A stretch of DNA of 26,022 bases from an uncultured Deferribacteres bacterium (GTDB taxonomy: Bacteria > Zhuqueibacterota > Zhuqueibacteria > Zhuqueibacterales > Geothermadaptataceae), in the NCBI GenBank assembly GCA_964014485.1, contig CAXHAT010000112.1, positions 1-26,022 of the forward strand. Reading direction: 5' to 3'. Both the position numbers and the translations under genes were made by a program. Positions within the stretch are counted from its first letter, which is position 1. Every line of letters begins with the position of its first letter. Below the pieces are notes generated by a model, which saw only the letters and a list, made by a program, of their open reading frames with translations, had not been told where the DNA came from and searched no databases. Shown here piece after piece: positions 15,267 through 18,667 of this stretch.

Positions 15267-16778
15267 TCAATTCTCTGCGACATTGACATCAAAAGCGCCA
15301 GTTAAAACGTTTCCGGCACGTTTGACTTGAACCCAAACTCGATACTGACCCGCAACGGAAAACTCGTATGGAAACGCAACGTGCGAAGCGGTCGGCGCGT
15401 GCATGCTGTGATCCATCATCGACATGTCGTGCTGCATTTCGCCGCCTTCTGTTTGTGATGACTCGAATTTTTGCTGCGCGGCCATGGAAATGCTTCCCGT
15501 CGGATGGAGATGCACAAAAACGGAACCGTCGGTGCGAGAAATTGCGGCGTGACCCAGCATTCCCATGTAGGGCTCAAGTTTGGCGGGCCGTCCGTCAGGA
15601 TCGATCACTTCAAAGCGCAAGTTCGCCTCCTTCCCGACCTTTAAAACATCTTCTCGCCATTGCATGACGGAACTGTCGCTCAGTTGAAAAGAAAGCGCAA
15701 GGTCTTCACTCGCAGGCAGTACCGCTTCTGCGGCGGACGTTGCGTTCAAATGCCAGGAATCATCAACATCGGCGCTTAGACCGGAATCTGCGGGCGCGGC
15801 GTCCGGGAGTAAATCCGGGACGTCGACCGTATCGGTCAAGGTTTGGGCAAATCCGCTTTCATGAGTAATGTCGGCATAGACGCGATAGCTTCCGGCGGGC
15901 AACGGCGGCACAAGCACTTCGAACGAAACGGAATCGAGACGGACGGGATGGATGTGAGCAAAAGCGTCCAACTGCGGTTCGCGAATAATGAACATGTGCA
16001 TGAGCTTGCCGTGATCGGGGATGAGTGGCGTCCAGCGCCCGGCTTTCCAATCTTCGTCTTCAATCGTCAACTTCAAGATGCGCTTGTCGCCGTCCGTTCG
16101 AACGTCGGTTGAGATTTCGAACGGTTTGTAAATGTCGTCGCGATAGTCGTTGTCGATGCTGTCCCACCACGCTTTGCCGCCGAATAAAATCAGGCTGAAC
16201 ACCGCCGTCGCACCGACCATGCTGAAGCGAGAAACCCAGATGCGGCGTTTACTTGGTTTTTCACTCGGACCAAGCATACTTTCACGCACCGCCGCACCTA
16301 CGATAGTCACGCCGCCTGCAAACAAAAGGACGCCGAGGACGATTAGAATCGTACTCATCAAACCGTCCATTTCCGTCGTAGTCGTCGCCAGAGAAACGAC
16401 CGGGACGATGACCGTTCCTTCGCCGTCCGGGCCTTTGACGAAGACATGAACGCTGTAGGAACCGGATGTCATCAGCCACAACTCGGCTGTGTAAAGACCT
16501 GTCTCGCCGCGCACCGGCACGGCGGGATCCGGGGATGGCGAGCCTTCCAAACCAACGTCCCAGCGCACGGGGCGCACAGTGACTTGCTCGATATTCTCGC
16601 CTTTGACGCGAACGGTAATTTCAGCCAAGCCTGGCACTACGCCGGGCGGACGGATAATCACGCGCGTATCATATGGACCGGCCTTGCCTTCGAAAAACAC
16701 GTTGAGATCGCCAACATGACCGTAAAACGGAAAGACGACCAGCAGGAGCAGGCTAATTTTGAAAAACTTCATCGTCAT
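15267..16778 (-). CDS. Exported, two-TM-anchored His/Met-rich putative copper-binding protein (503 aa)
   Basis: Start reassigned to ATG 16778, which overlaps the upstream stop (ATGA). Signal peptide MTMKFFKISLLLLVVFPFYG then HVG; TM segments at ~143-164 and ~180-204. Duplicated motifs DHGKLMHMF..AHIHP..GSYRVY and YMGMLGHAA..VHLHP..GQYRVW, and a MQHDMSMMDHSMH tract. Confidence 0.85.
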   Translation of the reverse strand: MTMKFFKISLLLLVVFPFYGHVGDLNVFFEGKAGPYDTRVIIRPPGVVPGLAEITVRVKGENIEQVTVRPVRWDVGLEGSPSPDPAVPVRGETGLYTAELWLMTSGSYSVHVFVKGPDGEGTVIVPVVSLATTTTEMDGLMSTILIVLGVLLFAGGVTIVGAAVRESMLGPSEKPSKRRIWVSRFSMVGATAVFSLILFGGKAWWDSIDNDYRDDIYKPFEISTDVRTDGDKRILKLTIEDEDWKAGRWTPLIPDHGKLMHMFIIREPQLDAFAHIHPVRLDSVSFEVLVPPLPAGSYRVYADITHESGFAQTLTDTVDVPDLLPDAAPADSGLSADVDDSWHLNATSAAEAVLPASEDLALSFQLSDSSVMQWREDVLKVGKEANLRFEVIDPDGRPAKLEPYMGMLGHAAISRTDGSVFVHLHPTGSISMAAQQKFESSQTEGGEMQHDMSMMDHSMHAPTASHVAFPYEFSVAGQYRVWVQVKRAGNVLTGAFDVNVAEN

Positions 16779-17944
16779 CTTTTCACCCCCGCCATCCAAT
16801 TGCCCCACCACAACCCAAGCCGTGCTGAGACGACGGCCAAAAGCGCGGCTATGCCCAATCCGCGAATCAAAGTCATGCCGCTTTCGGCGCGCCAATGACG
16901 GTACCACCAATCGCCTGGGCGGTTAAAATAGCTGAACTCATGACCGGCAAAAAACCAGTTTCTCGCGTATTCCGTCAGCATAAAATTGCTGAAAAACCAT
17001 TGCACGACAAAGAAAACCGCCATGAAGGAAACGCCCAAAATAACGGACAATCGCCAGTCGCGGTTTGAACCGAACCTGCGTATCCAAAAATCGATAGCGA
17101 GCGCCGGGATAACCATGAGCATGGGAAACTTCGGCGGCACCATGTGATCGACCGGGTTATAAATCGGCGCTAACTTGGGTTCAGCGGAAAAAAGCGGGAG
17201 AATCCAGATCATCAGGCAGGAAATCGCCATGTAGCCCAGCGCCGCCGTGGTTGCCGGCCAGCGAAGAATTGAGGCCCGCGCCGTCGCGACCAACAATATT
17301 GTGTAAGCGCCCCCGGCGATCATGTAGAAACGCGTCTGGTGCATCTGCGCCGGTTGGCTGTATTCCATCGTCAATGTGGCCACGATGAGCACGAGAATAC
17401 CGCCGATGTAACCATAAATTCCAGCGTACACGTTTTTGAGTTTGCCCTCGTTTCGATTTTGCTCTGAAAGCACCAGCAAGAAAGCTCCGAGAACGAGCGC
17501 AATAATTCCCGCAGCCAGCAGCGTATGCGGCGGACTGATGATTTTGACGTCAAGGCCGTAAGCGTTGTGCCACCAATCGTCAAACGGCGCCGAGGTGAGC
17601 ATGGCAATGGCGCCCCAAATACTTAGCCATGCGCCGATTGGGCCGCGAAATCCCCAAAACCGAACAGAGGCGTTTTTTTCTTCAAGCGTGCCGCGAAAAG
17701 TGGTTTTCAGCACCAGCCAGCCGCCTGAGATTCCGCCAAGTACGCCGCCAAGATAAATGGCCATGTGCGCCGGCGTCCAGAAAGTGTCGCGACCAATGGT
17801 TCGATGCCACGAAATGTCCCAGATTACGCCGACGATGATACTCGTCGCGCCTAAGGCGACCGCATAGATAAACCAGGGGATTGCAGCAGCTCTTTCATGA
17901 ACCGTCGCTGTAGATTTCGCGGACGGGCGGATCGCGGATTCCAT
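16775..17944 (-). CDS. Polytopic membrane protein with two D-x3-H...H metal-site motifs (PmoC/AmoC-like)
   Basis: 389 aa with many hydrophobic helices. WDISWHRTIGRDTFWTPAH (D43/H47/H60) and FDDWWHNAYGLDVKIISPPH (D122/H126/H140). GGAGA RBS upstream. The CDS is secure; the family call is an inference. Confidence 0.85.
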   Translation of the reverse strand: MESAIRPSAKSTATVHERAAAIPWFIYAVALGATSIIVGVIWDISWHRTIGRDTFWTPAHMAIYLGGVLGGISGGWLVLKTTFRGTLEEKNASVRFWGFRGPIGAWLSIWGAIAMLTSAPFDDWWHNAYGLDVKIISPPHTLLAAGIIALVLGAFLLVLSEQNRNEGKLKNVYAGIYGYIGGILVLIVATLTMEYSQPAQMHQTRFYMIAGGAYTILLVATARASILRWPATTAALGYMAISCLMIWILPLFSAEPKLAPIYNPVDHMVPPKFPMLMVIPALAIDFWIRRFGSNRDWRLSVILGVSFMAVFFVVQWFFSNFMLTEYARNWFFAGHEFSYFNRPGDWWYRHWRAESGMTLIRGLGIAALLAVVSARLGLWWGNWMAGVKR

Positions 17945-18247: not shown

Positions 18248-18667
18248 ATGAGACAACAAATTCGACTGATTACAATTCTGACGATACTCTGTTCGGTATC
18301 GATCACTTTTGCCGATCTCAATTTGAAAGAATTTTCCCTCGAGCCCGGATATAACAAAGTGACGGTCCGCTGGGAAGTGCAGGGTGAAGCGGATTTGAGA
18401 GGCTATGAATTACAGCGAGGGTTGACAGACCGGGATTTTTCCAAAGTCACTTTTGTGAAACCCAGCGAAGCCTCAGGCCCGTTAAAAAAATACGAATACG
18501 TCGACAAGTCTGTCTTTAAACAGAGCACGACCGGGCGTTCCTACTACTACCGCCTGAAAATGGTCAACACTGACGGCTCTGCTAAATTCTCAAAAGTTGA
18601 AAAAGTCATCCCCACCATTTCCAGCGCACGCCAAACCTGGGGCAGCATCAAGGCGATGTTTCGCTAA
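18248..18667 (+). CDS. Small secreted beta-sandwich (FN3-like) protein with C-terminal TWGxIK motif
   Basis: 139 aa. Signal peptide MRQQIRLITILTILCSVSITFA; VTVRWEV..GYELQR..YEYVD..YYYRLKMVNTDG pattern; ends ARQTWGSIKAMFR. Confidence 0.8.
   Translation: MRQQIRLITILTILCSVSITFADLNLKEFSLEPGYNKVTVRWEVQGEADLRGYELQRGLTDRDFSKVTFVKPSEASGPLKKYEYVDKSVFKQSTTGRSYYYRLKMVNTDGSAKFSKVEKVIPTISSARQTWGSIKAMFR

Follow-up and report, generated by a model that had tools for sequence, protein, structure and literature searches.

In a stretch of 26,022 nucleotides from an uncultured Deferribacteres bacterium (contig CAXHAT010000112.1, hereafter the window), we identified a gene, P0001, that encodes a ten-helix membrane protein of 389 amino acids (16775..17944, minus strand) and appears to unite, in a single polypeptide, distant relatives of two subunits of the copper membrane monooxygenases (CuMMO), among them pMMO (particulate methane monooxygenase) as well as AMO (ammonia monooxygenase). 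The first four helices of this protein would correspond to the region of the PmoC subunit that carries the CuC and CuD metal sites, and the last six helices to the PmoA subunit. The gene overlaps that of a coupled partner, and the two products are predicted to form a complex. The explanation we favor is that the fused PmoC-PmoA-like chain and its partner constitute a metal-binding membrane redox enzyme, and to this statement, taken as a whole, we assign a probability of about 0.5. Its parts differ in strength: that P0001 is a distant CuMMO relative with two subunits in one chain is, in our judgment, highly probable; that the complex of P0001 and the partner is an enzyme is a more tentative proposition, somewhat short of even odds.

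The first-pass annotation of the window, made from the sequence without database searches, noticed in P0001 two Asp-His-His motifs and likened them to the copper ligands of PmoC. The observation is confirmed and the PmoC-like reading holds. The translation of the gene reads W42-D43-I-S-W-H47-RTIGRDTFWTPA-H60 and F121-D122-D-W-W-H126-NAYGLDVKIISPP-H140, and the coordinates assigned to the two motifs, 17525..17818, are exact, with the D43 codon starting at 17818 and the H140 codon ending at 17525 on the minus strand. The first motif, D43-x3-H47-x4-R52-D53-x6-H60 (17765..17818, minus strand), extends from the end of helix 1 to the start of helix 2 and is the equivalent of PmoC CuC; the second, D122-x3-H126-x13-H140 (17525..17581, minus strand), extends from the end of helix 3 to the start of helix 4 and is the positional equivalent of CuD. 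The ligand spacings reported for P0001 (4+13 and 4+14) and the distance of 79 residues between D43 and D122 are also correct. A six-frame translation of the window (52,040 residues) contains D-x3-H-x12-H just once and D-x3-H-x13-H just once, both at these sites of P0001.

For the PmoC side of the comparison, passages of PMC12576850 give the ligands that the first-pass annotation had named: Asp156, His160 and His173 as the CuC ligands of methane monooxygenase PmoC and Asn227, His231 and His245 as those of CuD, with Arg165 hydrogen-bonded nearby. True PmoC from five methanotroph genomes reads D-GTW-H-QTVIRDTDFTPS-H and N-EFG-H-TRWFMEELFVAPL-H, the motif stretches being DGTWHQTVIRDTDFTPSH and NEFGHTRWFMEELFVAPLH, with 71 residues from the Asp to the Asn. 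P0001 has the same Asp-x3-His-x12-His pattern as PmoC and AmoC (PF04896; 7S4H chain C; AmoC chains 9leg_C, 9pxf_G and 9cl6_C), an (Asn/Asp)-x3-His-x13-His pattern some 70-80 residues after it, an Arg-Asp pair downstream of the first His, and both motifs at helix ends of a four-helix arrangement.

The likeness extends to homology at the level of sequence profiles. We compared an alignment of 52 full-length homologues of P0001 at 30-60% identity (A2), hand-picked from lists of 120 and 150 rows with fragments and most near-duplicates excluded, with an alignment of 30 PmoC/AmoC sequences (A3). The two profiles align in hhalign with a probability of 81.1% (E 1.2e-5) over 102 columns, and the alignment puts the six ligands, together with the Arg-Asp pair, in register with CuC and CuD. 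At CuC, D43, H47, R52, D53 and H60 are paired with Asp, His, Arg, Asp and His residues that are invariant in the 30 PmoC/AmoC sequences; at CuD, D122 is paired with the Asn, and H126 and H140 with His residues (PmoC H203 and H217). The first hairpin compared with the CuC hairpin of PmoC yields 95.5% (E 1.5e-8), and the residues common to the two include W, R, D, T, F, T and P, none of which is a ligand. Searched against the sequences of all PDB chains, the profile of the P0001 homologues recovers three matches, all of them AmoC (E 1.2e-4 to 2e-4) and all over the first motif, and 11 of the 52 homologues weakly match the Pfam family AmoC, with a best E-value of 0.0011.

Within the family, the candidate ligands are among the conserved residues. 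D43 is present in all 52 homologues, H60 and D122 in 51 each, H126 and H140 in 46 each, and H47 in 43, and the canonical six occur together in 42; among the residues that are not ligands, W125 is present in 52, D53 in 46 and R52 in 42. The replacement of the CuD Asn by Asp, which had been pointed out for P0001, recurs among its homologues: the position of D122 is Asp in 51 of 52 homologues and Glu in the remaining one, as opposed to Asn in 30 of 30 PmoC/AmoC sequences. Sub-groups with altered ligands are also found (P0151, P0190 and P0200; P0195, P0227 and P0269), and their changes are correlated; judging from the sequences, the ligand sets DEH-DQQ and DQH-DHH of such sub-groups suggest variants that may bind another metal or no metal. 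In a further cluster, represented by P0109 (496 aa), an extra N-terminal, Cys-containing domain (PF06155) is fused before the PmoC-like bundle.

The two motif-bearing hairpins of P0001 also resemble each other. In the family, the hairpin of residues 20-92 aligns with that of residues 97-168 at 91.8% (E 7.4e-7), which supports the ancestral internal duplication that the first-pass annotation had raised as a possible cause of the pseudo-symmetry of the two sites. The two hairpins of PmoC itself, in contrast, are no longer detectably alike (hhalign 0.2%), so that the P0001 family retains recognizable duplicates where PmoC does not. If this is true, the CuC and CuD sites of PmoC are diverged twins that derive from a single duplicated hairpin.

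The remainder of the chain, a six-helix domain of residues ~166-389 (16778..17449, minus strand), has the fold of PmoA/AmoA (PF02461; 3rgb_B, 7s4h_B, 9cl6_B), which is shared by residues 173-388. In a second look with VIA-align, PmoA and AmoA chains fill the top 12 rows, with Z of 11.7-12.8 and 190-214 residues aligned, and the next unrelated protein follows at Z 8.2; the cleanest match, 9cl6_B, superimposes residues 173-388 of the model on residues 30-246 of the chain (Z 12.3, root-mean-square deviation (rmsd) 3.8, 190 residues aligned). Foldseek, run with the whole model, likewise places PmoA chains on top (3rfr_B, E 0.039, probability 1.00, TM-score by target 0.51-0.56). In sequence, the C-terminal half aligns almost end to end with a comparison alignment of 42 PmoA/AmoA sequences (A7) at 65.7% (E 5.8e-5, 199 columns), and P274 and D285 are paired with the invariant Pro and Asp of PmoA. 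The cross-controls stay close to zero: 0.3% for the N-terminal half against PmoA, 0.07% for the C-terminal half against PmoC, and 0.3% for PmoC against PmoA. Taken singly, each of these lines of evidence is moderate; combined, they indicate one and the same subunit over a consistent span. The differences from PmoA/AmoA are also clear: the C-terminal half has no Pfam match, its sequence identity to PmoA/AmoA is 12-14%, and it shares one polypeptide with the PmoC-like bundle.

The AlphaFold2 model of P0001, of high confidence (predicted local distance difference test (pLDDT) 93.7, predicted TM-score 0.91), comprises 10 long helices. The first four of them, 24-49, 58-84, 103-129 and 138-164, form an N-terminal bundle (residues ~20-165; 17450..17887, minus strand) that is similar to the metal-site half of PmoC, as the helices and the hhalign results both indicate. 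In the model, each motif runs from the end of one helix into the beginning of the following one (helices 1/2 and 3/4), which places both at the same end of the bundle and, at the level of prediction, on one face of the membrane. By the positive-inside rule, the N-terminus, loops 85-102 and 164-170 and the C-terminus would be cytoplasmic, and both motif loops periplasmic. With this topology, the conserved polar residues D43, H47, H60, D122, H126, H140, E194, H202 and H267 cluster at one face.

The partner gene, which encodes 503 amino acids (15267..16778, minus strand), is joined to P0001 by an ATGA overlap (16775..16778, minus strand) in which the ATG of the partner occupies 16778-16776 and the TGA of P0001 occupies 16777-16775. 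The pairing is obligate in the loci surveyed. A family alignment (A1), searched against a collection that holds a single genome for each species, matched at least 578 stretches with a gene related to P0001, and in all of the 80 loci that we retained from these, a homologue of the partner gene is located directly downstream; other neighbors from the window recur in 0 to 5 of the 80. No third conserved gene is apparent at these loci, the next real cluster being present in at most 6 of 80; two larger clusters of neighbors proved to be antisense shadow open reading frames. Scans for promoters and terminators detected no signal above shuffled controls.

The partner is an exported protein with a signal peptide and a mature sequence that starts at His21. 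Its model (pLDDT 88.7) consists of a β-sandwich (residues 27-129), two transmembrane (TM) helices (139-166 and 177-215) and two further β-sandwiches (222-320 and 341-501). His21 is invariant in 30 of 30 partner sequences, with the consensus A/HVGSP (the slash denotes cleavage), and so are D255, H256, H261, H275, H277, M407, H410, H423 and H425. The His-x-His motifs are located in the second and third domains, and H21 is the only invariant His of the N-terminal domain. The predicted complex of P0001 and the partner reaches an interface score (ipSAE) of 0.81 (0.81, 0.82 and 0.79 in individual runs), compared with 0.02 for the best of three controls; in the calibration, 116 of 157 solved complexes attained this mark, as did 2 of 215 mismatched pairs, counts that are only rough here given the use of custom alignments. 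Contact agreement is at least 95%, and the pLDDT of the partner in the complex is 84. In this predicted complex, R52 and residues 124-133 of P0001 touch the conserved V47, P49, G50, W101 and M103 of the partner, and residues 91-97 and 383-389 touch the loop between the two TM helices of the partner. The contacts of R52 and residues 124-133 are made with the exported N-terminal domain, in agreement with a periplasmic location of the motif loops.

The overall organization of the pair, with a PmoC-like and then a PmoA-like region followed by a membrane-anchored periplasmic protein, is colinear with the xmoCAB operons, for which we used a pmoCAB example as the comparison. The partner, moreover, resembles PmoB/AmoB (PF04744) in having a cleaved signal peptide that leaves a His, a β-sandwich, two TM helices and a further β-sandwich, and in being encoded last in the operon. 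The CuB site of PmoB uses the N-terminal His, according to passages of PMC11725843; in contrast, the N-terminal domain of the partner lacks a second or third His that would complete a CuB-like site, and the partner has three β-domains where PmoB has two. Among the PmoB copies from the methanotroph genomes that we inspected, those of L118, L116, L121 and L124 have no His after the signal peptide (AVQGMGAKSQEA), and that of L120 has one (AWA/HGERSQEA). The copies without this His fit the statement, in passages of PMC6215863, that the N-terminal copper site is absent from PmoB of Verrucomicrobia.

Taken together, these findings suggest a mechanism in which P0001 would assemble with its membrane-anchored, periplasmic partner such that the two Asp-His-His triads are adjacent, at the end of the bundle that faces the periplasm, beneath the N-terminal domain of the partner. 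Of this scheme, we infer the redox chemistry as well as the metal, the substrate and the source of the electrons. The triads may hold a single metal ion or two, with copper the likeliest and a dinuclear center possible, and the His at the mature N-terminus of the partner and its His/Met-rich domains could load or tune the metal. The precedents are the CuC/CuD pocket that, in passages of PMC11725843, is the active site of pMMO, with CuD 5.7 A from CuC, and bacterial AMO, for which parts of a preprint (10.64898/2026.08.31.748207) describe CuC and CuD as co-occupied in a dicopper center, with quinol as the proposed reductant. The complex could then be a membrane redox enzyme that is supplied by the quinol pool, as has been suggested for AMO, and acts on a membrane-soluble or periplasmic substrate. 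No linked gene for a redox partner would be needed, because quinol as the reductant would explain its absence.

Several observations weigh against this interpretation. P0001 has no match to any Pfam or NCBIfam family at E<=1, and when its genome is searched with AmoC it attains 14.7 bits, short of the cut-off of 26.7. The hhalign match of residues 42-155 spans only columns 140-246 of the 290 in the PmoC profile, and the N-terminal ~125 residues of PmoC have no counterpart in P0001, in which only ~20 residues precede helix 1. The second hairpin, aligned alone with the CuD hairpin, is in register yet not significant (0.75%, E 0.075), the equivalence of this motif to CuD being based on register, spacing and topology, with no sequence signal of its own; moreover, the CuD Asn is replaced by Asp, and 10 of the 52 homologues have altered ligand sets, including three DEH-DQQ and three DQH-DHH. 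For the PmoA-like half, the Z of ~12.5 is under the level of ~13 at which helical bundles become safe, Foldseek with the whole model returns no row at E<=1e-3, and hhalign gives just 1.5% against a shallow alignment of 8 PmoA sequences and 65.7% even with the deeper one. The partner shows no detectable sequence similarity to PmoB (hhalign 0.4%), and PmoB is missing from the results of three fold searches with the partner, the lists being filled with generic immunoglobulin-like (Ig-like) folds; the N-terminal domain looks instead like the copper-handling proteins CrdA (Z 9.8, rmsd 2.6, 99 residues aligned) and CopC (Z 8.1). Finally, no true AmoC was found in the six host genomes searched (that of the window and five others), and no metabolic neighbor points to a substrate.

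The genomic setting also separates the pair from the known monooxygenases. Because the hosts lack a true AmoC and the neighbors are ordinary, the pair does not represent an operon for methane or ammonia monooxygenase. By the gene content of the same six genomes, the hosts, unlike those of PmoC/AmoC, are neither methane nor ammonia oxidizers. The pair does not attain the sequence threshold of any of the three subunit families (PmoC, PmoA and PmoB), and P0001 departs from PmoC/AmoC in carrying a PmoA-like domain on its own chain, in falling short of the Pfam threshold of PF04896 and in being encoded in a two-gene unit (80 of 80 loci) rather than with separate genes for PmoA and PmoB.

The main rival explanation, which draws its appeal from features of the partner, is that the pair is a module for acquisition or trafficking of copper, of the CopC/CopD or YcnI/YcnJ kind, in which the partner would capture periplasmic copper and the Asp-His-His sites in the membrane would store, relay or import it. 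We consider this a possible but less probable account. It is attractive in that a periplasmic Ig-like domain starting with His and paired with a polytopic membrane protein is a likeness to CopC/CopD, YcnI/YcnJ and CrdA, and that the invariant N-terminal His of the partner is shared with CopC and with YcnI (PMC8424229). The nearest of the copper-handling folds, CrdA of H. pylori, is a copper resistance determinant, and it is also matched by the partner profile among the PDB sequences at E 0.015; 7 of 30 partners show a weak match to the Pfam family YtkA (22.7 bits against a cut-off of 25.9). The lack of linked redox or substrate genes and the commonness of the module among heterotrophs fit such a role as well. 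However, the Z values of CrdA and CopC are within the generic Ig-like range, and a carbohydrate-binding module matches the same domain at Z 9.9-10.2. The partner also differs from the CopC/CopD and YcnI/YcnJ systems in its two TM helices and two extra His-rich domains, and P0001 matches no Pfam family, CopD (PF05425) included, at E<=1. In the predicted structure, the conserved polar residues of P0001 lie at one face and mark no path through the membrane, and a relay role would leave the retention of an entire PmoA-like domain unexplained.

A second alternative concerns the identity of the metal. Both triads of P0001 are of the 2-His-1-carboxylate type, which is typical of Fe(II) enzymes and is seen in the non-heme iron oxygenases, and the center might accordingly contain iron or another metal other than copper, as a di-iron or mixed-metal site. 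The Asp (or, once, Glu) found in the 52 homologues in place of the PmoC Asn would fit such a center, as would the replacement of His by Glu and Gln, harder ligands, in the DEH-DQQ variants (3 of 52). We nevertheless regard this alternative as improbable: the homologous sites of pMMO and AMO hold copper, according to passages of PMC12576850 and PMC11725843, and the partner has the features of a copper protein, namely, the N-terminal His, the His-x-His and Met motifs, and the CrdA- and CopC-like matches. That P0001 resembles PmoC and PmoA by convergence or by chance, and is an unrelated helical membrane protein with two metal- or heme-binding His pairs, as the absence of Pfam matches, the Foldseek E-values, all above 1e-3, and the best wide VIA-align match of the N-terminal half, cytochrome b561 (Z 11.8, rmsd 3.2, 165 residues aligned; treated here as a generic helical bundle, from a list that gives one chain per entry and in which a separate PmoC chain could not appear), might suggest, is highly implausible given that three independent signals converge on the same enzyme, colinear with its operon, that the CuC hairpin shares residues other than ligands, and that all cross-controls are below 1%.

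The family to which P0001 belongs is very large. Its homologues comprise at least 7869 clusters at 90% identity, every named one of which is annotated as 'hypothetical', and 2173 representatives at 50% identity are related to P0001 at E<=1e-3. According to the record titles, the 80 retained loci come from Gemmatimonadota, Acidobacteriota (several orders), Verrucomicrobiota, Methylomirabilota and Eisenbacteria. One related locus, L059, is titled as a metagenome-assembled genome of Klebsiella pneumoniae, and all other titles name soil and sediment phyla; this bin is probably mislabeled. With P0001 alone as the query, phmmer against the PDB returned only chance rows (E 1.5 or worse), and an ESM Atlas search found nothing outside its own family. 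We found no description of the family in literature searches directed at it or at distant CuMMO relatives, with most subscription journals outside their coverage.

In the genome from which the window comes, P0001 has no paralogue, and a second weak AmoC match (L001) was dismissed as an unrelated membrane protein. Within the phylum, the family profile is found in this genome only (1 of 167 searched; 1 of 105 of high quality). The GC content of the pair, 0.52-0.55, is in line with that of the window, and relatives of a transketolase from this contig occur in the phylum at 46-68% identity. The pair looks like an old lateral acquisition rather than the product of a mis-binned contig. The other genes of the window encode FadB-like, TetR, MacB/FtsX, permease, GGT, PLD, SDR, CYTH, M29, DinB, transketolase and ArsR-methyltransferase proteins. 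Transcribed divergently, at 18248-18667 on the plus strand, is a gene for a small exported protein of 139 amino acids with a weak fn3 match, which is present in 0 of the 80 related loci.

The CuC/CuD pocket, now regarded as the active site of both pMMO and AMO (PMC11725843), is fragile and hard to study. A very large family of two-gene relatives in ordinary heterotrophs could offer a simpler and possibly more tractable system for this metal center. The P0001 family could also root the phylogenies of the CuMMO and, if the relationship proposed here is true, would be the first true outgroup of the CuMMO trees. A bolder version of the favored reading, which we consider rather doubtful at present, is that these proteins are living single-chain relatives of the CuMMO ancestor and that very many soil heterotrophs possess a dicopper-capable membrane oxygenase with a subunit starting with His. 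Be that as it may, what emerges looks like a family that is common in soil bacteria that do not use methane, a distant cousin of the copper monooxygenases that has so far gone unstudied, and it raises the question of the role that such a center might play in bacteria that oxidize neither methane nor ammonia.

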